IMG/VR virus record: IMGVR_UViG_3300020042_008470
Location: 1 to 37,780 of that record
Length of the DNA stretch: 37,780 nt
Strand: one strand, 5' to 3'
Origin: a virus
Lineage: Duplodnaviria > Caudoviricetes
Part shown: piece after piece, positions 13,802-37,780 of the stretch
Layout of the letters: the number at the start of each line of letters is the position of its first letter
Position numbering within the stretch: the first letter of the stretch is position 1
Program-made: the position numbers and the translations under genes
Notes under the pieces: model-generated
Databases searched by the model: none
Told to the model about the DNA's origin: nothing
Seen by the model: only the letters and a program-made list of their open reading frames with translations

Positions 13802-16093
13802 TTATAAACCCATCTCTTGAGCTTCTCTTTCAATCTGCTTAATCATGGCACCACGTAGGCCGCCAAAATCAATAAAGTGATACGCAACTAGACGCCATGA
13901 GTGATCAAAACCGGTCATGTCGATTTTTTCCCACGCGCGGGAATCAAGGGCATAAAGCAGTTGTATCGCCCAAAGCTCCTTTTCTTCCGTCGTGTTAGCG
14001 TCCAAAAATAAAAGCTTTGCCCAACCACGGTCTGCAAAAGGCCTCAGTGTGTTTTTTAAGGCCCCAAGCTCGCGCGCAATCGCAAAGCAACCCGCGTACA
14101 TAGCTTCAATTGCCGTAATACAAAATGTTTCAATAAAGTTAGCCGGGTATAGCCACACTACGGCCTCTTTCATTTCGCGAGCTAGCGTTTTTTGGTCAAC
14201 GTTGCCGTGGTATTTAATCCAAGACTTAGACTTAATTAAATCTAAAAGCTTTTGGGCCTTTTCTTCAAGACCCGGCGCTTTTAATAAATTCTCAATGCCG
14301 TAGTAAACGTGAAGCTCCAAATCTCGGCCCGACTTTGCGCGAGCTATTTCTATAATATCAATCGCCCGCTCTAATCCACGATCAGGACTAGACGGCCACA
14401 CAATCTTGTTCTCGTTTTTTACAACCGTCATATCGAAGCGCTCTTTGTTAACGCCATTACTCGTGACCAAAATCTTTTCCGGTGGAATGTTTTGCGTCAC
14501 TTGTAAAAAGTTTTTATGAAACTCAGATAGCGCCAAAATCATTGTATAATTAGCGTGGTTTTCTGCGCCCGGGGTCATCAAGTCATGACACCACACAAAA
14601 GTAGGAGCGCTGGTTAATTTAACCGCATGTCGCCAAGCATAGTGAACTTTTGGTTCAAATTGTGCGAAGTATTCAAAGGCCTGTTGAGCCGGCCTGTAAA
14701 TAACGCCGCTCTCACATATTTTTTCACTTTCACGAGTGTTAAATACGATTACATTTCGCCCAGTGATTTTTTTAATGTGAGCCGCGACCTCGACAAGTGC
14801 CGTTTCGCTTCCACCAAAGCCTTTTGTTTTATAAAGCTCTTCGTCAAATGGGTAAGGGTGAGATCCTGGCAAACAAGTAAAAACAACGTCGTCGCATTTT
14901 TGTTTGTCTACGTTATCATTTTTTTCAATAGACGACTTCATATTTAAAAGCTCGCCCAATAGTTTTTTTGACTCATCATGACCGAAAAGCTTTACGCTTT
15001 CAGTTGCCACAACAATTGCTGATTCAATGTCTCCAAGCTTAAAGTGAATTCGTGCCATCATGTCGCGTGGAACATGCTCATACGCGGTGTGATTAACGTA
15101 CAAAAACCCCTGACCTTGGCCCGCTGGTTTTTTACATTGAACAGCCGCACCGTAAAGTGGTAACGCCTCTGTTTCTCTACCCATTTTTACTAAACAGTCC
15201 GCCGCTAAACAGTAAAACTCAGCACGGTTAGGTGCTAGCGCCATACCATTACAGGCAAGTGACAAACCTTTGGCGAGTAAAGTTGGGTCTTTTTTGTTTG
15301 CCGGTAAATGCTCCTGCTCGGAGTGGTATCTATGCAAACAAGCTCTGACCAAATACTCAAAAGTTAAAATGCGGTCATGGCCCTCAAGTTGCGGGTGGTC
15401 CGCCACCTGATCAAGCCATACGTAGCCCTCCGCAAAACGGCCCTTATCACAAAGCTCTTTACCGTAGTAAAACTTTAATCGTGGCGGCAACTCTTCAATT
15501 TTTGAGCGCTTTTCTAAAATAGTGACGTTGCGGTTAAAATCCACTTCGTAATCTTTTAATGTTCGCCTGTGGTTAACCGTCCAATTGTTTGCAAGCATGG
15601 CTTGAACAAATTCTTGCGCAATCATTCCTTCGTGAATAAAATATTCCCACTTAAACTTCTTTGTTGTGCGAATTACGCGTTCTCGTAAAAAAGTACAAAC
15701 AGGCCGGCCCTTATCGTCGTAAGCATAATTATATGGGGCAAGCCAGAAATCAGATAAAACCATGACTTCGTCACGCCACATTTTAAACGCCTCTTTACTC
15801 GACATGGCGTCATCAAGATCAAGCCACATGACATACTCTTCTGTAACGCCTTCCATTGAGTAATTTCTGGCAGCGGCAAAATCTTCAATCCACTTGAAAT
15901 GCTTTAACGTGACTGGGCAACCGGCTATTTTTTCAGCCTCACCACTTGTAACAACTTCGATTGTGCCGTCTGTTGATCCTGTGTCCGTTAAGTAAATGTG
16001 ATCATAACAACCCGCCACGCTTTCAAGCATGGGTCTAATGTGATCGATCTCGTTTTTCATGATGCATGCAAGTGCAATTGTAGGTCTGTTCAT
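13802..16093 (-). CDS. Bifunctional glycosyltransferase (GT2 - TPR - GT4/GT-B)
   Basis: IMKNE, DTGSTDGT, DFAAARN, WLDLDD, IHE (GT2); TPR-like PNRAEFY; GGSET, SSPDRGL, ETFCITAIEAM (GT4). Confidence 0.92.
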   Translation of the reverse strand: MNRPTIALACIMKNEIDHIRPMLESVAGCYDHIYLTDTGSTDGTIEVVTSGEAEKIAGCPVTLKHFKWIEDFAAARNYSMEGVTEEYVMWLDLDDAMSSKEAFKMWRDEVMVLSDFWLAPYNYAYDDKGRPVCTFLRERVIRTTKKFKWEYFIHEGMIAQEFVQAMLANNWTVNHRRTLKDYEVDFNRNVTILEKRSKIEELPPRLKFYYGKELCDKGRFAEGYVWLDQVADHPQLEGHDRILTFEYLVRACLHRYHSEQEHLPANKKDPTLLAKGLSLACNGMALAPNRAEFYCLAADCLVKMGRETEALPLYGAAVQCKKPAGQGQGFLYVNHTAYEHVPRDMMARIHFKLGDIESAIVVATESVKLFGHDESKKLLGELLNMKSSIEKNDNVDKQKCDDVVFTCLPGSHPYPFDEELYKTKGFGGSETALVEVAAHIKKITGRNVIVFNTRESEKICESGVIYRPAQQAFEYFAQFEPKVHYAWRHAVKLTSAPTFVWCHDLMTPGAENHANYTMILALSEFHKNFLQVTQNIPPEKILVTSNGVNKERFDMTVVKNENKIVWPSSPDRGLERAIDIIEIARAKSGRDLELHVYYGIENLLKAPGLEEKAQKLLDLIKSKSWIKYHGNVDQKTLAREMKEAVVWLYPANFIETFCITAIEAMYAGCFAIARELGALKNTLRPFADRGWAKLLFLDANTTEEKELWAIQLLYALDSRAWEKIDMTGFDHSWRLVAYHFIDFGGLRGAMIKQIEREAQEMGL

Positions 16094-22568: not shown

Positions 22569-22871
22569 TTAATCTTCGATTGCATCCATTTTCGCGCGGT
22601 CACTCAAGTTTTTTGGTAACACGCCCTGTTTTTTCTTGCGCTTCATGTTATGCATTTCATCTTCGCCCATCAAATCCTCAGGCAACATCATGCTGTCTGA
22701 CATTTCTTCTTTGTCATCTTTTTTATCACCCGGCGCAGGCGCAAGACCCTGGACTTTCATTTCTGTTTCTTCATCGCCCTCAACCGCGCTAGGCTCTAAC
22801 TCTATTTTTACAACAATATTGCCCTGGCCTTTTTTCATATCTAGAATTTGGCCTAAAATATCTTTTAACAT
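22569..22871 (-). CDS. Small charged hypothetical protein
   Basis: TAATG-coupled to the portal gene. Confidence 0.6.
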   Translation of the reverse strand: MLKDILGQILDMKKGQGNIVVKIELEPSAVEGDEETEMKVQGLAPAPGDKKDDKEEMSDSMMLPEDLMGEDEMHNMKRKKKQGVLPKNLSDRAKMDAIED

Positions 22872-24907
22872 TACATATCCCCCATCATTTGATCGTCCAT
22901 TAATATATCAGCACCCGGCCCAGCGGCCTCGTCAGGTGGTAATTCATCTTGTGGTAAAGCTTCGTCAACTGGCGGCATGCCAGGCGGCGGTGGACCGGCT
23001 TCGGCTTGCACCGCTTGCACAATAAAAGTCTTGTGCTCTTCTAAGTTAGCTAAAAATATTTGCTTAATCTCTTCCGGATATGCCAAGAATTTATCAGTCT
23101 TACGCACTCGGTTTTTATAATCAAAATGAGCTTGGTGGTCATCGTCAGGATGAATTTGTGGCATCATGCCCATCTCAATTTCTTCCATTGACCGCTTAAT
23201 TTGTGCGTCGTTAACGAATTGATCTTCCCAAATACCCGACACGTCGCCAAATTCTAAATGCTCTAACAGTTTTCTGCGAATTGTCGGGTCATTTGGATCG
23301 CCGAGTAAACCCTGTTGATAAGCGTTTAACAATTCTTGTCGTTTCAGTGTTTTACTGTTTGGTAAAGTTGAGCCTCTAACAACCACTACGTCGAATGACT
23401 CTTTTAAATCTTCGCCTGTAAATTCTTTGACCACATACTCGCCCGACTGGCCGGCCTCTTTTAGATAACGTTTACCGTTGTAATAGCGAGCGGCGTATTT
23501 AGCGATTAAGCGACCAACGTCAGCCCAAGAGTTTTCATTAGACTCGGTAACAATACCAATTCTAGTTTCATCAGCCTCTTGTAATAGCTGCATTCCAATT
23601 GCCGGGATTGAAGCCGAAGGCATTTGACCCTTCGATACTTCGCTAATACCAGAAATTTCAGCCATTTCGCCTTTTAGCGTCTCACCGTCAGTATACACAT
23701 ATTGTGGCAACTGCGGCGGCACAACAGACTTCGGCGCTTCGGCATTTGGCACCGGGTTATATTGTACAACCTCAGTGTTATCCGTTAATGCTGACTCGGT
23801 TAAGCCCGCACCCTTTGCCGCGATAAATTTTAAATTTAAACCCTTATTTAAAAACTCAGCTTTACGCCGTAAATTTCTATTAAATTGATCTTGTAATGGT
23901 CGAATGTGAGTGATCACACTCTCTGAATAGAATTTACCGCCGACTTGAATATCATCAAACTTTACGAAATTAATCTCACCGCAGGGCAAAGATTTATACG
24001 TTAACAATACACCGTTTGCGACCACAATCATGCGGCCCTCAGGGTAACGCTTTGAAGCCTTTTCGTAGTAGGCTATCTCAATCGCCGAGTCTTTCATGTC
24101 GGTGTCCATTTGCCCACCGCTTGATTTGCTCGACATGTTGTTAATCTTAATTAAATTTTGAATAGACGTGAGCCAAGCGCCCTCTTGTTTTACTTCTTTG
24201 CCCTTTTCGCCATAGTTATTTCTAAAGTAGGCAAGTTTACGAACCTTCGCTTGTATCAACCATTGTGCGTCACTCACTCGTTGGGCAAGCGTATCGATAT
24301 ACACTTCGAGTGGTGAGCACACGTCAAAACCAATATCACCTTCGTGCTCTATCTCACCTTCGGGCGTGGCAAACTGTTTGCCCTTCATGCCGTCCCAGTA
24401 AACTTTGCCCCAAGAGTGACCGCCTTGCTGCATCCACATATATAAGTGAATACGCTTTTCATTAATGCGCTCTTGATCCCACACATTATTAATAACTTTT
24501 AACGTTAATCGTGCGGCGTCTTTATCCTCTTGGCCGTTTGTGTTTGGGCGAACATCATATCGCGGCGGGTTTTTAGCAAGACGTGAAAGTCTATTTTGAA
24601 CCGTTGGCAAAATAAGGTTGGCGTGAACTCTAGATTTTTGCGGGTAACCCGCTAATCCAGAATATGGCCGTAGTTGACGAGAGCGAGAATCAAAATATAC
24701 AGAATCATACCCCAGTAAATAAGCTGTATTTGTGATGACGTTGTTCTCAAACGTAATACGAGCAGGGTTATTTTTTGACTCATCGACTTTATTTTTAATA
24801 AAATTGCATAGCTCTTTTTCATCTTGCCCGCCAAGCTCTAAATCTTGTTGTGGACTAGCATTTGTGAAAGACGCAATTTTATCTTGAAGGCCCTTAAATA
24901 GATCCAT
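22871..24907 (-). CDS. Portal protein
   Basis: 678 aa after TerL; NLILPTV, IRPLQDQFN, EISGIS..SKG, acidic/Pro-rich tail as in P22-like portals. Confidence 0.85.
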   Translation of the reverse strand: MDLFKGLQDKIASFTNASPQQDLELGGQDEKELCNFIKNKVDESKNNPARITFENNVITNTAYLLGYDSVYFDSRSRQLRPYSGLAGYPQKSRVHANLILPTVQNRLSRLAKNPPRYDVRPNTNGQEDKDAARLTLKVINNVWDQERINEKRIHLYMWMQQGGHSWGKVYWDGMKGKQFATPEGEIEHEGDIGFDVCSPLEVYIDTLAQRVSDAQWLIQAKVRKLAYFRNNYGEKGKEVKQEGAWLTSIQNLIKINNMSSKSSGGQMDTDMKDSAIEIAYYEKASKRYPEGRMIVVANGVLLTYKSLPCGEINFVKFDDIQVGGKFYSESVITHIRPLQDQFNRNLRRKAEFLNKGLNLKFIAAKGAGLTESALTDNTEVVQYNPVPNAEAPKSVVPPQLPQYVYTDGETLKGEMAEISGISEVSKGQMPSASIPAIGMQLLQEADETRIGIVTESNENSWADVGRLIAKYAARYYNGKRYLKEAGQSGEYVVKEFTGEDLKESFDVVVVRGSTLPNSKTLKRQELLNAYQQGLLGDPNDPTIRRKLLEHLEFGDVSGIWEDQFVNDAQIKRSMEEIEMGMMPQIHPDDDHQAHFDYKNRVRKTDKFLAYPEEIKQIFLANLEEHKTFIVQAVQAEAGPPPPGMPPVDEALPQDELPPDEAAGPGADILMDDQMMGDM

Positions 24908-24922
24908 TAACCCTATCCGTGG

Positions 24923-25183
24923 TTATAGTCGCGTTAATTCAGATAACGCCCCAAAATCTTCGACCTCGTCAGCCTGCAACTTAATTGTGTCCTGCTTTTC
25001 ATCGGGTTTCAACTCGGCTGACTTAAACTCGAAATAGTTCCTAGACATAAGTTTGTTTAGTAGCTTGTGAGTGTTTAAAACCCAGAAAACATTTGTCAGT
25101 ACAAGTAACCCGGCTAACACCAATTCACTTGCGGGCACTGCGAACCCCACATGAAAACTCATCTTTAGGAAATACGATCTCAT
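24923..25183 (-). CDS. Small membrane protein (start uncertain)
   Basis: TM segment plus KLMSRNYFEF; between TerL-C and portal. Confidence 0.5.
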   Translation of the reverse strand: MRSYFLKMSFHVGFAVPASELVLAGLLVLTNVFWVLNTHKLLNKLMSRNYFEFKSAELKPDEKQDTIKLQADEVEDFGALSELTRL

Positions 25184-25565
25184 GACAGTTTAACCCATCG
25201 CGACGCGCCAGATCCTCGGCTTGGCCGGCCAAACAAAGTCTAATGTTTTTATAAATGTAATAGCCTACTGGATGAATTTTGCCGCCATAGAAATGCTTTA
25301 ACACCGCTTCATCGACTTCAATCCAGTCTGATTTTGTGGCCTGAGCATAAGCTACCGCCGCGTCTAGTTGAATGATCTTTTCAGCAATCGCCATGCGCTC
25401 TTCGTGGCTAGCTTTGGTTTCTTGTTTACCGACAACGTCAGAGATACTGACAACGCGTTCAGTAGGCTGTTCACTCAAACTCTTCTCGATGGGTTTGCGC
25501 TTGGCCTTCTGTGAGTCGTCTAATGTATTGCTTTTCATAGTCGGGGTGGTTGGGATTTGTGACAT
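25125..25565 (-). CDS. Hypothetical protein
   Basis: AGGA SD; overlaps the TerL-C tail. Confidence 0.6.
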   Translation of the reverse strand: MSQIPTTPTMKSNTLDDSQKAKRKPIEKSLSEQPTERVVSISDVVGKQETKASHEERMAIAEKIIQLDAAVAYAQATKSDWIEVDEAVLKHFYGGKIHPVGYYIYKNIRLCLAGQAEDLARRDGLNCHEIVFPKDEFSCGVRSARK

Positions 25566-26295
25566 TTGTTTCTTCCTTTGGTTTATCTGGGTAAAACGCT
25601 ATCTCTTCTATACTTGCTAAAGCATCCAATAAATCATCATGCGCGCCTCTAGGAAAACTCTTGTACTCAACGAACAAATCGTCAAGACCTTCGTTTACAA
25701 ATATTTTGCCATACTCAAATCTTGGGACAAGTGATCGAATTCTAAGCGGCTTGGAGTTGTTAGACCGTTTGCCGCCGTCCGTTGTAATGTTTGAGCGTCT
25801 AACGCCCTTAATGGGCACAATTTGGTTTCTTCGCTGCATTTCTTCGCTAAGAAAATGTAATAAAGCTCGTTGATAAGCCACGTCTTCGACACCGATAACC
25901 GATGGATTAAAGGCAGTATGAACGTCAAAAATGTGTTTAACGGTATCTGTCGCAGTAATCCTTTGACGGTGGGCGAGCCTGACATACCAGTTCTTTTGCC
26001 AATCAACGTGAACAACCACTGTTGCAGTAAAGTCAGCGCCATCATTAAGGCTGATAGCAGGGTCAATAAAAGCGAAAGTGTAATAATTTTCAGGTAACTT
26101 ATCATATTGTTTAAACCACCCAGCTTTGAAGTCTTGTTCCTCATCCGGTATGACCTGATTGAGATACTGGCTTGTAAATTTATACACGCCTTGCGATTTG
26201 CGAAGCTCATCAAGCTTAGCCTGGTCAAGCTTTTCAGGGAAGAATAAAGATCCGTCGTCATTGTAAGCGCCCTGATAAACTATACCCCAACTCAT
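25471..26295 (-). CDS. terL: Terminase large subunit, C-terminal part (end of ATPase/lid region + RNase H-like nuclease)
   Basis: LFFPEK, FTSQYLN, FIDPAIS..DFTA, GVEDVAYQ, K..RI, FPRGAHDDLLDALA. Confidence 0.9.
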   Translation of the reverse strand: MSWGIVYQGAYNDDGSLFFPEKLDQAKLDELRKSQGVYKFTSQYLNQVIPDEEQDFKAGWFKQYDKLPENYYTFAFIDPAISLNDGADFTATVVVHVDWQKNWYVRLAHRQRITATDTVKHIFDVHTAFNPSVIGVEDVAYQRALLHFLSEEMQRRNQIVPIKGVRRSNITTDGGKRSNNSKPLRIRSLVPRFEYGKIFVNEGLDDLFVEYKSFPRGAHDDLLDALASIEEIAFYPDKPKEETNVTNPNHPDYEKQYIRRLTEGQAQTHREEFE

Positions 26296-26966
26296 TAACT
26301 CGACACCGCAAAAGCGTTTTCTGCCGCCGTCTTTGCTTTTCTTACTGTTTCGGCCGCGTTGCCGGTATCTGCATAATCAACAAGAATTGCTTCCCACACT
26401 GACGCCGCTAAACCCTCAGGGCTTAACTCGGTTGGGCCGCCGGCCTCTGCGACCATAAAAGCTTTTGCCGTCATGTCTACGTCAGGCGTTAACACACACG
26501 CACTTGTTGCCGTTGCCGGTATGATACCGCCTAGACTTGCGTCGGGTGTCATCGTCATTGTTGAGTCGGCAACTGCGTCGACACCGGCCGACATATTCGC
26601 ATCACTATTTGAAATTGCTAAAACTGCGTCGGCACTCATCGGCACAATTTGATCAGCTTGTGCGTTTGTGTTTGTGATCGCCATAGTTGACGACGCCACA
26701 AGCGCGCGGCCCATCTTTGCGTCAGCGCTAGACTTAACTAAATTTAATATTGCTGGGTTAAACGAAGCCATGCCGCCGGCTTTTAACGGTAGTACTATGC
26801 CGCCAGTATTGTAACCGTTTGGCATACCCGACTTATCGTCAATAGCGCCGTTGCCTGCATACATGTTTCGCAAAAGATCGAGCCTTTGAAACGCTACTTT
26901 GTTATCGCCTGCAAAGACGCAGCTTTGATAACTAAACGTGTTTACTCGGTTAGGTCTTAAAGCCAT
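26295..26966 (-). CDS. Putative virion structural protein
   Basis: A/S/T-rich beta repeats; ELSPEGLAASVW C-terminus. Confidence 0.55.
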   Translation of the reverse strand: MALRPNRVNTFSYQSCVFAGDNKVAFQRLDLLRNMYAGNGAIDDKSGMPNGYNTGGIVLPLKAGGMASFNPAILNLVKSSADAKMGRALVASSTMAITNTNAQADQIVPMSADAVLAISNSDANMSAGVDAVADSTMTMTPDASLGGIIPATATSACVLTPDVDMTAKAFMVAEAGGPTELSPEGLAASVWEAILVDYADTGNAAETVRKAKTAAENAFAVSS

Positions 26967-27875
26967 TTATCCCCACGCAAATTCTAAGGACCCTGAAATA
27001 ATGTTACCATTCGCGGCCGCACCTGACGGCTGATAAAGTAAATTCAAACACGCGCCGTCTTGTATTTGTGGCAAGCTCGGCACTGCGCTTAAGAAGTCCA
27101 TAACCACCGGCACGTTAGCCGTCGTTAGTGGTATCTCGGCAAGTGGTTGGCATATCACAAGGGCCATTGTACCAGTTGAAGCGTGCGGAGTCGTGACTGT
27201 TACAACTTCAACAGACTTAATACCAGTGTCACCCGATTGTAATGGTAGAAACGGTCCTCTATTGTTGGCCGACGTGCCAGACGATGGGAAGCGACCGATA
27301 CCAACCGAAGCTGTAAAAACAGTTGTCGCACCTAGCGCGCGGCCCGTATCGGTGCCGCCTGTTGTTTGTCTTGTGTAGTTTAACTGTACGCTTGGCGTGT
27401 TAGCGCCCGATGCTACCGTATGTACAAAATACGCCCTGTTACCATTGCCGTTTGTATATCTAGATAGCGCTGAGCCGGCCGTTAATGTTTGCGCAGTTGC
27501 CGACGTTGAAACGATTGTCGGGTAATAGAGAAGTGTATCAGTCAATAATAAAGTGCCAACCGCTGAAGCCGCCGCGTTTGCAACGGCCACCGCTTTTAAT
27601 AAATGCTTCGTATCACTAGCGACAGTATTGCCGTGATAAATACCCCAACCTGTTGTTTCAGTCGGCACGGTCCCAGTTAACGCAGACCCCGCAAAGGTGT
27701 TAGCAACTGGCGAGCCTGATAAAAGTGATAAGTCATACCAAGAGCCGGCCGTATACGCACCGTTTGCAATCGTTTTGTTAAAGTCGGCCCGGTACCTTTT
27801 ACCGTTTACCGTCATTTCGTTAATTAAATCGTCAATACTAGAAAAGCCCATGCTACCCCCACGTAGTTGAAACAA
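26967..27875 (-). CDS. Putative virion protein, paralog of 27853-28758 (start likely MGFSSID)
   Basis: Shares AG.W.DLS, L.D..LYYP and GPF.PLQ.GD.GI.SVE motifs with its neighbour. Confidence 0.65.
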   Translation of the reverse strand: MFQLRGGSMGFSSIDDLINEMTVNGKRYRADFNKTIANGAYTAGSWYDLSLLSGSPVANTFAGSALTGTVPTETTGWGIYHGNTVASDTKHLLKAVAVANAAASAVGTLLLTDTLLYYPTIVSTSATAQTLTAGSALSRYTNGNGNRAYFVHTVASGANTPSVQLNYTRQTTGGTDTGRALGATTVFTASVGIGRFPSSGTSANNRGPFLPLQSGDTGIKSVEVVTVTTPHASTGTMALVICQPLAEIPLTTANVPVVMDFLSAVPSLPQIQDGACLNLLYQPSGAAANGNIISGSLEFAWG

Positions 27876-28758
27876 GACCGCTGACTACCGCCGCCGATAA
27901 AGACGAGGTAGGTAAACAAATAAAATTTAAATAAGCGCTATCATCAATCGTCACGCCTGAAACAAAGTCATAAAAGTTATCGTACTGACTCGGCGTTGAA
28001 AAGGTAGCAGTAACTTCAGTCAGCCCAATTTCACAAATAGGCTTTACTAACACTAGCGCCAAAATGCCGCCGTTAGACGCCACAAAGTTAATCGACTCAA
28101 CTGATCTTATACCAAGGTCACCGGCTTGCAGCGGTATGAACGGACCAGACCCGCCGACGTGTGTGCCTGAGTGAACTATCGTTGCCGCAAGCGCCGCCGT
28201 GTTTGTCGTGACTGTTGGCGATACGCGGCCTGCGGTGCCGTTCTGGTTTGTGTATGTAATGCTAAATTGTGCGTTGCCCGAATAAGACCCTTGGCTGACA
28301 AGAATTGCTCGGACGCCTGCGCCTGTGTTTGTTCGCGACAATACCGGCGTATTATCTAACGCTTGGTCGCCAGTCGCGTCCCCATCGATAAATGGGTAAT
28401 ACAGTATGTAATCACAAAGCAAAAGAGTTGAAGATTGAAACGCAGTCGACGACGAGTAGGCCAACAGTTTTTTAATATACTTTTTATCTGTCGATACCGG
28501 GCCGCCGTGCCAGATGCCCTTATTAGACGGCAATGTTGCCGCAACTAATGGCTCAGTTGCGTAGAAGTTAGCGGCCGGATTGCCAGGCGAATAACTAAGG
28601 TCGCACCACGTGCCGGCAACCGTTGCGTTAGAAACAACTTTTCTAAACGACGAAACCCATGACTTGCCGTCAGTAGTGATTGAGTCATTAACATCTTTAA
28701 ACCTTTGAAACCCAGGCACCGGATTAATCCAACGTGAATGACAATGCGCCGCCGGCAA
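27853..28758 (-). CDS. Putative virion protein, paralog of 26967-27875 (start likely GTG near 28719)
   Basis: Shared motifs; both proteins end in WG. Confidence 0.65.
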   Translation of the reverse strand: MPAAHCHSRWINPVPGFQRFKDVNDSITTDGKSWVSSFRKVVSNATVAGTWCDLSYSPGNPAANFYATEPLVAATLPSNKGIWHGGPVSTDKKYIKKLLAYSSSTAFQSSTLLLCDYILYYPFIDGDATGDQALDNTPVLSRTNTGAGVRAILVSQGSYSGNAQFSITYTNQNGTAGRVSPTVTTNTAALAATIVHSGTHVGGSGPFIPLQAGDLGIRSVESINFVASNGGILALVLVKPICEIGLTEVTATFSTPSQYDNFYDFVSGVTIDDSAYLNFICLPTSSLSAAVVSGLVSTTWG

Positions 28759-29134
28759 ACTGTGGTTGAACCCCTGTTGTAACTGTGATCGGTGAATTTA
28801 ATTCGGCGTACACAATTACCGTGCCGGCACCACTTGAAGTCGTAACAATCGCGGCGTGAGTGATAATGTTAGAGCCTGACGTGCAAGCGGGGAACTGTTC
28901 TAAGTTTGCGTTTGAAACAGAGTTGCCGCTGACAGTGAAATCAGTCGCTCGGGCAACGGCCACACGCGCATAGCTACCATAAGTTGATACCTCATTCGTG
29001 ACAGCTGACCCGGCTTCGTCCGGCGTTGCGGTGTAAAGCGCAAGCCATAGATCGGTGTTACCATTCCATGATAGTGCGGTGCCTACGAATACTTGGTTTA
29101 AAACCGCTGTTTCTGCGGTGTTAGAAAATGACAT
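28724..29134 (-). CDS. Phage tail-fibre-associated / structural protein
   Basis: MSFSN.AE..L, LALYTATP, SYARVAV, ITHAAI, P.F.GGAL...D pattern common in phage tail modules. Confidence 0.65.
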   Translation of the reverse strand: MSFSNTAETAVLNQVFVGTALSWNGNTDLWLALYTATPDEAGSAVTNEVSTYGSYARVAVARATDFTVSGNSVSNANLEQFPACTSGSNIITHAAIVTTSSGAGTVIVYAELNSPITVTTGVQPQFAGGALSFTLD

Positions 29135-29143
29135 TTAGTCCCC

Positions 29144-29416
29144 CTAAAGCGTCGTTTGAATTATTTCATCTAATACATCATCAACGTAAACAAAATCTTT
29201 TCTAATAGTAGAAGCGCCAAAATAAACTGTGTCAATTCTTGTGAGTACGCCGTCGGTATAAGTAAACACTTTGTATGACCCATCGTCGTAATCAATTTGA
29301 GTTAACACCCCATCAACATACGTAAAACTAGGCCCGACTAATTCTTGCGTCGTGCTTCCGGTGCCTGAGCTACCTAGGCTACTGGACCCAATCGGTGGGC
29401 TACCCAGCCGGCCCAA
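29144..29416 (-). CDS. Small protein with three FxYxDGVLxxI (YD-like) repeats
   Basis: FTYVDGVLTQI / FTYTDGVLTRI / FVYVDDVLDEI. Confidence 0.6.
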   Translation of the reverse strand: MGRLGSPPIGSSSLGSSGTGSTTQELVGPSFTYVDGVLTQIDYDDGSYKVFTYTDGVLTRIDTVYFGASTIRKDFVYVDDVLDEIIQTTL

Positions 29417-29737
29417 TTAAACACCTACCGTTGCGCCAGACGAATAACCAATCAACATTGAAACCGTCATGGTTGCACTAGTTGCCGCTAGATAAATTCT
29501 TGCAGGCCCATCAACAAACACCGACTCGTTACTTGATATTCGATAACCCAGACCCCAACCCACCGCTAGCGTCCCTGATAAAGCAAGCGGCGGCGGTACA
29601 ACTTCAAGGGTGCCAGACCCAGTATGTATTTTAAAGTTTGTTGCATAGAGGTAGGCCGTTGGTTCAATCTTAACGATAGCCGATAGACCAACCGTTAAGA
29701 GTGACGCGCCAACCACCGCTATGTTTTGACTATTCAT
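29417..29737 (-). CDS. Small beta-rich structural protein, paralog-like to 29901-30209
   Basis: GTL, G.. and I/LY/F.A/S..AT.T similarity between the two. Confidence 0.55.
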   Translation of the reverse strand: MNSQNIAVVGASLLTVGLSAIVKIEPTAYLYATNFKIHTGSGTLEVVPPPLALSGTLAVGWGLGYRISSNESVFVDGPARIYLAATSATMTVSMLIGYSSGATVGV

Positions 29738-29904
29738 TAAATTCTCGTAATGAAGTGACTTTTTTCTTTTCTAATCTTTTTTACCGAAATGTGGATAAAC
29801 GCAAATAGTACCAACATCATGAAAGCTAAAAATGCCTGAATCATGAGAGTGATCGGCATAGCGTTGGCGAGTATTTGTTGTTTAATCTCTGTTAGTTCAA
29901 TCAT
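29737..29904 (-). CDS. Small TM protein, 55 aa (not in ORF track)
   Basis: Manual translation MIELTEIKQQILANAMPITLMIQAFLAFMMLVLFAFIHISVKKIRKEKSHFITRI*; ATGA and TAATG coupling. Confidence 0.65.
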   Translation of the reverse strand: MIELTEIKQQILANAMPITLMIQAFLAFMMLVLFAFIHISVKKIRKEKSHFITRI

Positions 29905-30209
29905 GGTGCGAGCGTTGTGCCTTGTGGCGCTGAGAGATAAGACACGATGTTTGCCGTTGCCGTTGCGCCACGTGAAGAGATAAAAAGCCGCCCGCCGCCC
30001 CAGATTTCATAGGCAGTTGAAGCGCTTGGAATAGCGACACCTACGGCCCCAGTGTTACCAAGAATGTGAAGGGTGCCACCTGTGTAGTTTAAGATTTGTC
30101 TTGATACTACGTTTGTATTTGGAAGCGCCACAACCAAAGATACGCCAACATCATAGGCCGCCATTGTGTAACCAACAATTTTAGTAACGTCAAACATTTC
30201 TAACCCCAT
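29901..30209 (-). CDS. Small beta-rich structural protein (start likely MFDVTK at 30197)
   Basis: GGGG SD before the second Met; overlaps the TerL-N stop. Confidence 0.55.
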   Translation of the reverse strand: MGLEMFDVTKIVGYTMAAYDVGVSLVVALPNTNVVSRQILNYTGGTLHILGNTGAVGVAIPSASTAYEIWGGGRLFISSRGATATANIVSYLSAPQGTTLAP

Positions 30210-30933
30210 TTAATTTTGGTTGTTTTTTAAACTCTTCTAAACTTTTAAAGCCAAGCTGGTTTTTAATCACCCAACCGATAATATCCTCTTCGTGGTATCT
30301 CGTTCCTATGATTGCATAAATGCCGTCAGTTTCAAGTATAGATTGATTGTACTGGTAATGATCAATAACTTTTTTTCGTTGATCAAGAGTTGAAGTGTTA
30401 GCAGGCGAGTTATAATCGTCACCTATAATTACATCGTAATGTTGCCCGACCTTGGTTGTGCCGATACCACCGCATGAGATTGACGGCTCTTTTAAAACCT
30501 TGTTGCGTTTACCGATTGTAATCTCTGAGTCATTCCAAGAATAACCTAGTTTCTTTTGCTGATCGGGCGACGGCATCCAATTGCTAAATAGGTCTATAAA
30601 CTCAGGCAGCATAACAAGGTTTTTAATCGCGTTTAGATAAGTGACTGAGTTGCCGTATAGCTCAGAGTCTATAAGTATGCGCAGGTTAGGGTCACGCATG
30701 AGTAGCCAAATAGGGTAGGCAATGGCCCCGATACTGGACTTAAACGTGCCACGTGGAACACAAATCATTTTGCGCTTACACGGACCCTCTAGAACTGAAA
30801 CTATCGGCTCATGGGTCTGTGCCGTCATGTCTTTAAACCCACACAAGTGTTTTGCCGTGGCGTATAGCGACTGTGTGTAAACTTGTTTAAGTGCTGCTTT
30901 AATTATGTGCGGAGGTTGTTTAGTTAGATCCAC
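30190..30933 (-). CDS. terL: Terminase large subunit, N-terminal ATPase part
   Basis: Walker A PRGTFKS, Walker B YDVIIGDD, motif III IIGTRYH..D; directly after TerS. Confidence 0.9.
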   Translation of the reverse strand: MDLTKQPPHIIKAALKQVYTQSLYATAKHLCGFKDMTAQTHEPIVSVLEGPCKRKMICVPRGTFKSSIGAIAYPIWLLMRDPNLRILIDSELYGNSVTYLNAIKNLVMLPEFIDLFSNWMPSPDQQKKLGYSWNDSEITIGKRNKVLKEPSISCGGIGTTKVGQHYDVIIGDDYNSPANTSTLDQRKKVIDHYQYNQSILETDGIYAIIGTRYHEEDIIGWVIKNQLGFKSLEEFKKQPKLNGVRNV

Positions 30934-31006
30934 AGAAAAAGATTAGAGTATAGAGCCAACCAATAAGCAACCCCATTGATATCAGTAGCCAATCCTCAAA
31001 CTTCAC
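30920..31006 (-). CDS. Small TM peptide, 28 aa (not in ORF track)
   Basis: GTGA overlap with the TerS stop; MKFEDWLLISMGLLIGWLYTLIFFCGSN*. Confidence 0.4.
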   Translation of the reverse strand: MKFEDWLLISMGLLIGWLYTLIFFCGSN

Positions 31007-31377
31007 TTCTTAAGAGCCTCGATAAGCTTTTGTGCTAGCGCCTCGGTCTGTTTACTGTCGCTAACGTCTTCGGTTTTAACTTCCATTTTTTCAGTCACCA
31101 CGCCAATAGATCTACGTAGCAAGAATTCACTGCGTAGCGTGTCACCCTGACCAATAGCGCGCGCCATGATTGAAATAACCATAAGCTCAATAGCCGGCGT
31201 TTGGTTTGGGTTTCTGATCAACTCTTTTAACTCGTCGTGGGTTTTATGCATGTACTTATAGATGATCTCTTCAAACATCGTTTTAGTGAGTTTGCGAACC
31301 TCAAATACTTCAGGCGCAACGAATTTGCCTTTTCTAATCTTGTCGCCCTTTTTTAGCCTATGCCCAACGTTTGCCAA
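31003..31377 (-). CDS. terS: Putative terminase small subunit
   Basis: Basic N-terminus, helical core, EFLLRRSIG...EKMEV tail; upstream of the TerL ATPase part. Confidence 0.6.
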   Translation of the reverse strand: MANVGHRLKKGDKIRKGKFVAPEVFEVRKLTKTMFEEIIYKYMHKTHDELKELIRNPNQTPAIELMVISIMARAIGQGDTLRSEFLLRRSIGVVTEKMEVKTEDVSDSKQTEALAQKLIEALKK

Positions 31378-31385
31378 TTGGCCCC

Positions 31386-31619
31386 CTATTTTAACGCATC
31401 TAGGCGTTGTTCTATTAGTTCTATCGTAACATCACCGGCGGGGCTTGAGTATGTGGCTTTTTTATCTTTCTGGACCTTTGCCCAAAACCAAGATGGGAAT
31501 GGGCTAGACGGTTTAAGCTTTGAGATTGTTGTCGACACACGGCCTGCGTATTTAAACTCTTTTGTGGTGCCGTCTGAGGTTATTTTAACGTGAGTTAAGT
31601 AATGCTGCATTTTAATCAT
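31386..31619 (-). CDS. Hypothetical protein
   Basis: Overlap-coupled to the methyltransferase gene. Confidence 0.5.
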   Translation of the reverse strand: MIKMQHYLTHVKITSDGTTKEFKYAGRVSTTISKLKPSSPFPSWFWAKVQKDKKATYSSPAGDVTIELIEQRLDALK

Positions 31620-32868
31620 GGTTCCACTCTATTTGTTTGCCGTTTTTCTTTATTTTAGTTTGGCCGGTGTATTTAGACCATCTTGATACAATAACGTCTA
31701 TGTAATGAGGGTCTAGCTCCATCATAAAACATTTGCGTTTTGTTTTTTCACAGGCGATTAGAGTTGAACCGGAGCCGCCGAATACATCAACGACAGATTT
31801 TGGATCATAATGATTTAATATGTCTACAAAAAGTCCCACTGGCTTTTGAGTAGGGTGGACACGCTTTGTAAGTTCGTCTTTTCTGTCGCCTTGCCTGGTC
31901 ATGCCAACCCATGTAAATTTAAAAACCTTAACTGCTTTTTTATCGACATTCGTCCATGCCAATTCAGCACCACTAAAGTCGGCACCTTCGGGTATTTCTT
32001 TATTCCAAACTATCCAATGTGGCGAGCAGGGCAATTTATCTGAAAAATGATTAGCACCCCATATTATTTTTAATTCAGCTAAATCCATCAAATGAGTCGG
32101 GTCATATGGCTTGTCGTCTCCTATTATTGGCCTATAAACGCCAACCTTTGCTTTGTGAAATTGAGACGCGCCAACCATGGTTCCATCCGGCTTAACAACA
32201 TTCATCCCATACGGCGGATCAGTAAAAACCATATCAGCCTTAACGCCACCCATCAGCTTTTCAACGGTAGCCTTATCAGTCGAGTCGCCACACAAAAGCC
32301 TATGCTCGCCCAGTTCATACAAATCGCCAAGTTTAGACACCGGGTCTTTAGGCACCTCTGGCACTTCATCTTCAATTTCTTCTTTGTCGGTGTGGTCTTG
32401 GCTAAACTCTTTTTCGACCTCGTCAAGATCAATACCGGGCAATGAAAAGCCGTCTTTTAAATCACCAAAATCAAGGCCTGCGTTGTGTGCAAATTCAGCC
32501 AAACCACCGGGCGTAATCTTGCCGTAAGTGCTAGCTAGACTTAACAAAATCTTATTGGCCTCTTTATAGGTTTTAGCCTTAATTCGATTAACCGGGACCG
32601 CAGGCACCGCATACCCTTTTTGTTCAACGTATTGTAATAACCGAAGGCGTTGTGTGCCCCCTAAACTACATAAAGCGCCGGCCGTGCCGTAGTGACCCTT
32701 GTCATCCACCCACACGTCGATAGGGTCAACAAAGCCGTTTTCAATCACGTTGGCTTCAAACTTAACAATGTCGTCTTGATGCAGGTCTTTTAAGTCGCCC
32801 TGAATGATTTTGATTTGGTGGTAAGGCACGCGGTCTTCAACAGTTGAGTTTATTTCGATTCTTTTCAT
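31612..32868 (-). CDS. ParB-like domain fused to N6/N4 DNA methyltransferase (beta class)
   Basis: GFVDPI..GTQRL ParB-like; HRLLCGDST, VFTDPPY, HPTQKPV, DVFGGSGSTLIA. Confidence 0.92.
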   Translation of the reverse strand: MKRIEINSTVEDRVPYHQIKIIQGDLKDLHQDDIVKFEANVIENGFVDPIDVWVDDKGHYGTAGALCSLGGTQRLRLLQYVEQKGYAVPAVPVNRIKAKTYKEANKILLSLASTYGKITPGGLAEFAHNAGLDFGDLKDGFSLPGIDLDEVEKEFSQDHTDKEEIEDEVPEVPKDPVSKLGDLYELGEHRLLCGDSTDKATVEKLMGGVKADMVFTDPPYGMNVVKPDGTMVGASQFHKAKVGVYRPIIGDDKPYDPTHLMDLAELKIIWGANHFSDKLPCSPHWIVWNKEIPEGADFSGAELAWTNVDKKAVKVFKFTWVGMTRQGDRKDELTKRVHPTQKPVGLFVDILNHYDPKSVVDVFGGSGSTLIACEKTKRKCFMMELDPHYIDVIVSRWSKYTGQTKIKKNGKQIEWNHD

Positions 32869-37455: not shown

Positions 37456-37700
37456 GCGAAGATAGTCAAACTATTGGATTAAATAACGGCGACGGCAACG
37501 GCTACGCCAACGGCGACGGAAACGGCTACGGCTACGGCAACGCCAACGGCAACGGCGACGGCAACGGCAACGGCGACGGCTACGGCTACGGCAACGGCTA
37601 CGGCTACGGCTACGGCTACGGCAACGCCAGCGGCGACGGCAACGGCTACGGCTACGGCTACGGCTACGGCAACGGCGACGGCAACGGCTACGGCGGGTAG
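37434..37700 (+). CDS. Gly-X (N/D/Y) dipeptide repeat protein
   Basis: Encoded by a GGC(T/A/G)AC hexamer array at about 37485-37695. Confidence 0.7.
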   Translation: MVKASSLGEDSQTIGLNNGDGNGYANGDGNGYGYGNANGNGDGNGNGDGYGYGNGYGYGYGYGNASGDGNGYGYGYGYGNGDGNGYGG

Positions 37701-37780
37701 TTATGGGTCCAAATAATCTGACTGAGTTTTTCTTAGGGTTTTTTAATCTAGTTATAATGCTCGCCTATGTCGGGTTTTTA
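37660..37780. repeat. Terminal direct repeat, right copy
   Basis: Identical to 1-121. Confidence 0.95.

Follow-up and report, generated by a model that had tools for sequence, protein, structure and literature searches.

A Phage Large Terminase Encoded by Two Genes That Divide Its ATPase Domain

Several essential phage enzymes are produced from genes in pieces without splicing. The nrdA-a and nrdA-b genes of Aeh1 (PMC3045599, PMC2677866) and the split gp43 of T4-like phages (PMC2677866) have gained new tails at the break, and zero to eight genes lie between the RNA polymerase genes of N4-like phages (PMC5418858). Terminases in several open reading frames (ORFs) are known from Jug phages, whose terL introns are seen spliced in RNA reads (PMC12880540), from a published split-intein terminase (PMC2677866) and from Twort, in which the terminase is annotated as three coding sequences (CDSs; PMC13729910). 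What has been published, then, are splicing-free splits of other phage enzymes, and the terminase precedents that were found are re-joined by intron or intein. Here we describe a large terminase (TerL) that is encoded by two separate genes, TerL-N and TerL-C, in a virus of the Caudoviricetes (IMG/VR record IMGVR_UViG_3300020042_008470; "the window" hereafter means the whole stretch of 37,780 bases that was analysed). This fission of the packaging motor within its ATPase domain is real, old and under selection, and it is a trait of a whole clade of uncultured phages.

The locus shares with Aeh1 nrdA, gp43 and N4 RNA polymerase II the production of an essential enzyme from two co-transcribed genes. 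At the sequence level it also resembles the Aeh1 type in that both parts are under selection and are translated from starts of their own. Unlike the Aeh1 type, the window has no homing endonuclease in its gap, where the constant occupant is a small gene of a family termed c0, and unlike all these genes-in-pieces enzymes, the enzyme divided here is a force-generating motor. With Jug, Twort (as annotated) and the split-intein terL, it has in common several ORFs with other sequence between them. However, the Jug and split-intein genes are re-joined by RNA or protein splicing, while no intron or intein signature was found here. In folds (Z 22.4 for the ATPase, 14.8 for the nuclease) and catalytic motifs the halves agree with PhiV-1 TerL (8dgc chain E) and T7 gp19 (4bij), and the two genes occupy the place upstream of the portal that is usual for the one-chain T7-type-like TerL. 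Compared with that enzyme (NF033889, PHROG 38), the present one has two genes and an extra conserved C-terminal helix.

The literature covered, mainly the main text of open-access papers, yielded no account of a terminase made from two genes without splicing, and the text of PMC11564622, PMC7824862, PMC9915841, PMC3074133, PMC5418858 and bioRxiv 2025.06.11.659172 makes no mention of a split terminase. The uniqueness of the arrangement is nevertheless weakened by two kinds of database entries. In the unrelated Podoviridae sp. ctLwi270 (MW202554.1, L190:3926-6463) the terminase is annotated as two CDSs with a small gene between them: an ATPase and lid of 551 amino acids (aa), which contains an intein-like insert, then a gene of 62 aa, then a nuclease of 229 aa, with the break at the linker. 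Since the identity is 29% and the break lies after the lid, this is regarded as an independent event. The other entries are PHROG 4758 and 5573 (243 and 250 positions), half-length profiles that match the two TerL halves end to end.

The two halves and the site of the break

TerL-N (30190..30933, minus strand, 247 aa) is an ASCE ATPase core with Walker A (PRGTFKS), Walker B (VIIGDD) and motif III (GTRYH). The protein ends 38 residues past the motif-III glycine, without a lid and likely without the last core strand. TerL-C (25471..26295, minus strand, 274 aa) starts with MSWGIVYQGAYNDDGSLFFPE and carries DPA, E137 and HDDLLDA; its first approximately 52 residues hold what is likely the final ATPase strand together with the lid and linker, and an RNase H-like nuclease and a clade-specific C-terminal helix follow. 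The ATPase, nuclease, lid and linker expected of a large terminase are all present, only not on one polypeptide. The halves lie 3,894 bp apart with eight same-strand ORFs between them, the ATG at 30197 overlaps the TerL-N stop, and a TAATG at 26297-26293 joins gap gene 8 to TerL-C. The two ORFs, their motifs, the eight coupled genes in a gap of about 3.9 kb and both overlaps are as an earlier note on this DNA had described them from the sequence. The genome holds no second terminase copy: only one match to the second-half profile exists, and there is no longer terminase ORF.

Both halves are consecutive, non-overlapping parts of one terminase profile, TerL-N covering phrog_38 positions 280-469 (E 6.5e-36) and TerL-C positions 482-719 (E 7.4e-43), which is how the alignment to a TerL profile put forward in the earlier note turned out. 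Pfam finds nothing in TerL-N and gives only a sub-threshold match in TerL-C. Against NF033889, the T7-type TerL equivalog, the halves score 80.8 and 27.2 bits, so that neither passes the cut-off of 150; a fused relative, P0255, is also below it (90.3 bits).

The model of TerL-N has five core strands (predicted local distance difference test, pLDDT, 94.9; predicted template modelling score, pTM, 0.91), and its best fold match is the PhiV-1 TerL named above (8dgc_E; root mean square deviation, rmsd, 2.6; 225 residues aligned). On D6E, where the alignment ranges denote the first and last aligned residues only, TerL-N 31-228 aligns to residues 9-189 (Z 12.6) and TerL-C 1-234 to residues 191-415 (Z 14.2, rmsd 4.7); on P74-26, TerL-N ends at or before residue 212. 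Solved nuclease domains align to the TerL-C model from residue 50-55 only (Z 13-15), the nuclease of G20c matching that of TerL-C with Z 15.2, rmsd 3.2 and 160 residues aligned. A sequence search of the nuclease profile against the PDB gave nothing significant.

The break, at D6E 189|191, falls in a short loop that connects the helix following motif III to the strand after it. The lid of D6E includes Y213 and R224 and its linker spans 230-241 (PMC5727402), and the lid residues of P74-26 are R228-R245 (PMC5389665). By this mapping TerL-C starts about 40 residues ahead of the linker, and the break lies before the lid and linker, where the earlier note had placed it. The note had also taken the two genes for an ATPase and a nuclease. 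Two intact halves are indeed present, but the second gene is more than a nuclease, since its first approximately 50 residues belong to the ATPase domain. In fused relatives the distance from motif III to the FPE motif of the lid has a median of 39 residues (77 of 104 measured). Subdomain I of the T4 enzyme has six parallel strands (PMC3012670), and from the models we infer that the W3-G-I-V-Y7 segment of TerL-C would be the sixth ATPase strand missing from TerL-N.

Conservation of the split across a clade

Profiles built from 109 and 118 half-length sequences were used to screen 186 loci and the window. The screen gave 69 distinct split pairs, of which 65 have two complete ORFs, as well as 35 distinct proteins in which the halves are fused. 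One complete pair was dropped, L045, in which the second ORF begins at profile position 36, and 64 split loci remain, a few of them near-copies. The break falls in the same loop in all 64, and over the 65 complete pairs the gap ranges between -1 and 8,644 bp (median 2,329). For instance, L001 and L002 (86% identity) are broken at this site too, and one 100-aa gene of the c0 family is all that separates their halves. Among 80 further metagenome loci, which overlap partly with the contigs of the first screen, none is fused; 24 have both halves as separate genes, 50 have a stop in frame shortly before the second half, and 6 run into a contig edge. In the half-length ranges, 814 and 454 matches were obtained at E <= 1e-10, part of which were checked for clade membership. 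No clade member was found among 50,697 GenBank phage records, where the best matches listed are about 24-33% identical. Among 37 GTDB loci only L150-L152 belong to the clade, and these are short or phage-sized contigs in unrelated bins, so that they are not taken to point to a host.

Profile scores part split from fused proteins cleanly. Because the profiles were built from split-type proteins, however, a tree is the fairer test. A FastTree phylogeny of 141 rows places the 64 split pairs and the fused protein P0255 on one branch with support 99, and an IQ-TREE phylogeny of 42 rows recovers the same clade with a Shimodaira-Hasegawa-like approximate likelihood ratio (SH-aLRT) of 100. In a search of 1.84 billion representatives that was blind to length, the top 15 rows are 14 proteins without a nuclease and P0255. 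This 508-aa protein is the single one-chain member of the clade. It lies inside the split clade in two trees; placement as a sister is unrejected (approximately unbiased, AU, p 0.81), and the constrained tree scored higher. Its junction exceeds the usual 39 residues by 12, and the C-terminal motif of the clade is present in degenerate form. P0255 may be either a re-fusion or a one-chain sister, and it could act as a natural one-chain control.

Among the 120 longer matches listed, 104 are fused, and all but one of the top 16 are ATPase halves that stand alone and carry an intein. Conserved essential sites are where inteins are found, and their presence in these 15 halves counts in favour of the two-chain motor proposed below. 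LAGLIDADG inteins are located at two sites (profile about 62-65 and about 157) in the stand-alone ATPase halves P0241-P0254, P0256 and L133:5869-7641. Six lower-scoring half-length ATPase proteins (P0396, P0432, P0433, P0438, P0459 and P0470) end just past the motif-III helix, and these may be independent splits in the same loop or fragments.

The catalytic residues of both halves are retained. In all 64 split loci TerL-N has R61, G62, K65, the invariant R143, D172, D173, T211 and R212, and TerL-C has the nuclease acids D78, E137, D221 and D224 as well as the lid residues F19, L28, G36 and N46. W3 of TerL-C is present in 63 of the 64 and is mostly F in fused relatives. The ratio of nonsynonymous to synonymous change (dN/dS, 10 pairs) is 0.02-0.08 wherever dS is unsaturated, except in one near-identical pair (0.17). 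Both halves are under purifying selection. The helix motif at the C-terminus of TerL-C is found in 98 of 118 aligned sequences and, by a strict pattern, in 37 of the 64 loci, and is absent from three sets of long or fused proteins (0/104, 0/33 and 0/108). The helix may bind the portal or the partner half.

Two chains or a re-joined product

Covariation between the halves was assessed by mutual information with average product correction on 94 split pairs, 64 from the loci and 30 matched by equal size of contigs. TerL-C aa 1-55, with 21% of the columns, account for 15 of the 25 strongest inter-gene pairs. Shuffled partners gave 4.5 and swaps among kin 6.8, and the value of 15 was reached in 0 of 40 trials of either control. 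The top pairs V59-F18, C52-G4, V59-G9 and F64-K22 connect the Walker A strand and P-loop of TerL-N with the N-terminal segment and lid of TerL-C. The covariation supports contact between the halves, not their being separate chains.

It is likely, in our judgment, that TerL-N and TerL-C form a two-chain motor whose halves dock by strand and lid without splicing. With less assurance, we lean toward a motor common to the clade in which two gene products build the ATP site, one chain with P-loop and Walker B, the other with the last beta-strand, the force-transmitting lid and the nuclease. The W-x-x-V-Y segment at the N-terminus of TerL-C would supply the missing edge of the ATPase beta-sheet, next to the Walker A strand, and the lid would close over the P-loop, by which the ATP site would be shared between two chains. 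Lid, linker and nuclease would remain covalently joined as in one-chain motors. By analogy with known terminases the heterodimers would form a ring on the portal as usual, and co-transcription together with stop/start coupling likely keeps the halves balanced.

Several points weigh against this two-chain motor. The evidence for it consists of sequences and of models of single halves. The covariation cannot speak for separateness, because a re-joined product would covary too; furthermore, the effective number of pairs is only about 82 of the 94, and 30 of them rest on the matching of equal-size contigs. The strand block beats 99.98% of same-size windows with bounds that were set after the first covariation result. 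The break site seen here is not the sole one tolerated, since MW202554.1 breaks after the lid, at the linker. Cutting T4 gp17 at the linker retains ATPase and nuclease and abolishes translocation (PMC3012670), a result that alone does not account for the site of the break.

The two chains could also associate loosely, TerL-N acting alone as a lid-less translocating ring to which TerL-C docks briefly to cut DNA. TerL-N does fold confidently by itself (pTM 0.91), and in P74-26 the ATPase domain alone binds DNA while the nuclease is flexibly tethered (PMC5389665). Moreover, a G-V-Y-type motif conserved in the TerL-N tail of most of the window's subclade might fill the slot of the missing strand. 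However, some members have tails that end only 18 residues past motif III, so that a replacement strand cannot be a general feature. The lid residues of TerL-C, in addition, are nearly invariant and covary with the P-loop region, and the lid joins the ATP site and force generation in D6E and P74-26 (PMC5727402, PMC5389665). We therefore hold a loose association to be unlikely.

Still less probable is the removal of the gap in RNA by an unrecognised self-splicing intron or by trans-splicing, from which a one-chain terminase would result. The covariation is compatible with it, and the Jug terL introns are a precedent. Several features of the gap itself speak against it. Lengths from -1 to 8,644 bp occur in all three phases evenly (18/23/23), and in L016 the halves overlap by one base, which leaves no room for an intron. 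No conserved bases stand before the W codon or past the last helix. Rfam intron models can miss divergent subtypes. At the gathering threshold Rfam gave 0 matches in the window and no intron in 16 related loci, where divergent introns might escape; the one match in those loci is a tRNA upstream of the split terminase (L070:1108-1188). The translation signals are also those of dedicated genes. A start codon for TerL-C lies within 15 codons of W3 in 64 of 64 loci, at position -1 or -2 in 35, and the stop of the upstream gene abuts it in 50. The TerL-N tails extend 18-46 residues past motif III, are conserved in a subclade only, and are conserved there as protein: of the last 20 TerL-N codons, 15 encode the same residue in the window and L001, 4 of them by synonymous change.

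The published split-intein terminase and the one-base overlap in L016 might suggest that the halves are joined by ribosomal bypassing, frameshifting or protein trans-splicing. Such joining strikes us as very improbable, given that the intein families of Pfam match neither half, that the extra ends amount to only 18-46 and 1-15 residues, and that hopping across multi-kilobase gaps full of coupled genes is implausible. The 20 largest of 43 direct-repeat families and the 21 inverted pairs include none that brackets the gap, and repeats are at the chance level. The earlier note had reported no intron, intein or flanking repeats, and the Rfam, Pfam and repeat scans agree with it. An assembly artefact or a decaying gene can hardly be credited, even though no listed contig of three public DNA runs bridges either junction by 31 bases. 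These runs, among which no RNA run was listed, hold 8-11% of the window's words, and their contigs reach the ATPase end and portions of the gap genes; an independent contig (depth 2.7) has the ATPase stop unchanged with 14 bases beyond. The break recurs clade-wide in many contigs under purifying selection, and the genome is complete without a second copy. Misassembly, which the earlier note had named among the findings that would refute its claim, is excluded, since 64 loci on other contigs are broken at the same place and fusion is absent from all 80 metagenome loci.

Gap genes, genome context and implications

The gaps of the 64 loci hold 283 ORFs in 150 clusters, of which 126 are singletons, with about 98% of the coding length on the terminase strand. 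The same split is thus accompanied by different inserted genes in related contigs, a pattern for which the earlier note had proposed a search. The c0 family (about 100 aa; its profile was built from gap members) is in the gap of 55 of the 64 loci, never outside the gap there, and in 0 of the 35 fused loci. In the window it has two copies, gap gene 1 (29901..30197, about 98 aa, E 1.7e-9) and gap gene 3 (29417..29737, 106 aa, E 1.9e-26); all gap genes are on the minus strand. The ESM Atlas neighbours of gap gene 3 are unnamed viral clusters (0.93-0.94), and a weak lead (0.81) is a cluster of which 32% is PRD1 P5 spike N-domain, so that gap gene 3 is possibly a virion decoration protein. Gap gene 5 (28724..29134) belongs to the podophage GP4 fibre protein gp80 family, a virion protein (PF23140, E 2.5e-22, above the cut-off; phrog_240). 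Gap genes 6 and 7 (26967..28758) are paralogues of about 295 aa, 35% identical over 298 aa (E 2e-35), from an unnamed viral family with Atlas viral clusters at 0.97-0.98 and no Pfam match. Neither Pfam nor PHROG gives a family for gap gene 2 (29737..29904, 55 aa, with a hydrophobic stretch), gap gene 4 (29144..29416, 90 aa) or gap gene 8 (26295..26966, 223 aa), the stop of which overlaps the TerL-C start, and neither finds a homing endonuclease among the eight.

The remainder of the window's gap is more GC-rich (0.49) than the halves (0.41-0.43), and the GC-rich block with the gp80 fibre-family gene and the two paralogues is missing from L001 and L002. In other gaps, a scan of 16 representatives of the 283 ORFs identified an FkbM methyltransferase, a virion structural protein and an HNH-AP2 nuclease, the family of which occurs in 2 of 64 gaps. 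A single origin of the split is likely, possibly through the landing of a small c0 gene in the surface loop, and the gap would since have turned into a slot for changing cargo genes, several of virion type. The story of a founding insert is weakened by the 9 of 64 gaps without a c0 match, which count against it.

The window is the whole virus record, classed as having direct terminal repeats and as 100% complete. An exact 122-base repeat (1-122 = 37659-37780) fits a circularly assembled complete genome of about 37.66 kb. A structural operon on the minus strand encodes a P22-like portal, scaffold, major head protein, SU10-type adaptor and internal virion proteins (Pfam, PHROG), and by this gene content the virus is podovirus-like. 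The portal (22871..24907, minus strand; PF16510, E 2.7e-24; phrog_156) is the docking partner of the motor. Directly upstream of TerL-N, as in L001 and L002, lies a candidate small terminase (31003..31377, minus strand), which is proposed by position only and has no Pfam, PHROG or NCBIfam match. At the other end, a 146-aa gene in another frame (25125-25565, minus strand) overlaps the last 95 bases of the TerL-C gene when counted from its first start codon; a like overlap is kept in L001 and L002, and the gene has no family match. Upstream of the packaging genes, a ParB-like domain is fused to an N6/N4 DNA methyltransferase (31612-32868, minus strand), in the position of which L002 has only a 172-aa ParB-like gene. 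The structural operon also contains a 763-aa GT2-TPR-GT1 glycosyltransferase (13802-16093, minus strand) beside a 629-aa gene without a clear family. A scan for sigma-70 promoters and terminators gave no more matches than shuffled sequences.

Surveys based on TerL would likely miss or misplace this clade of hundreds of protein clusters, since Pfam is blind to TerL-N and reaches TerL-C only below threshold. The bacterial sensor Avs2 binds TerL (PMC11564622), and the best structural match of TerL-N is an Avs3-bound terminase; if the reading of a two-product motor is true, it may, as a speculation, alter how Avs sensors see the terminase. In packaging models the lid serves as a lever or transmission (PMC5727402, PMC5389665, PMC3012670). 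A natural pair cut upstream of the lid offers a direct test of which covalent links the motor needs. If the two-chain motor is true, the engine itself would have been divided naturally, and the division preserved throughout the clade's history.

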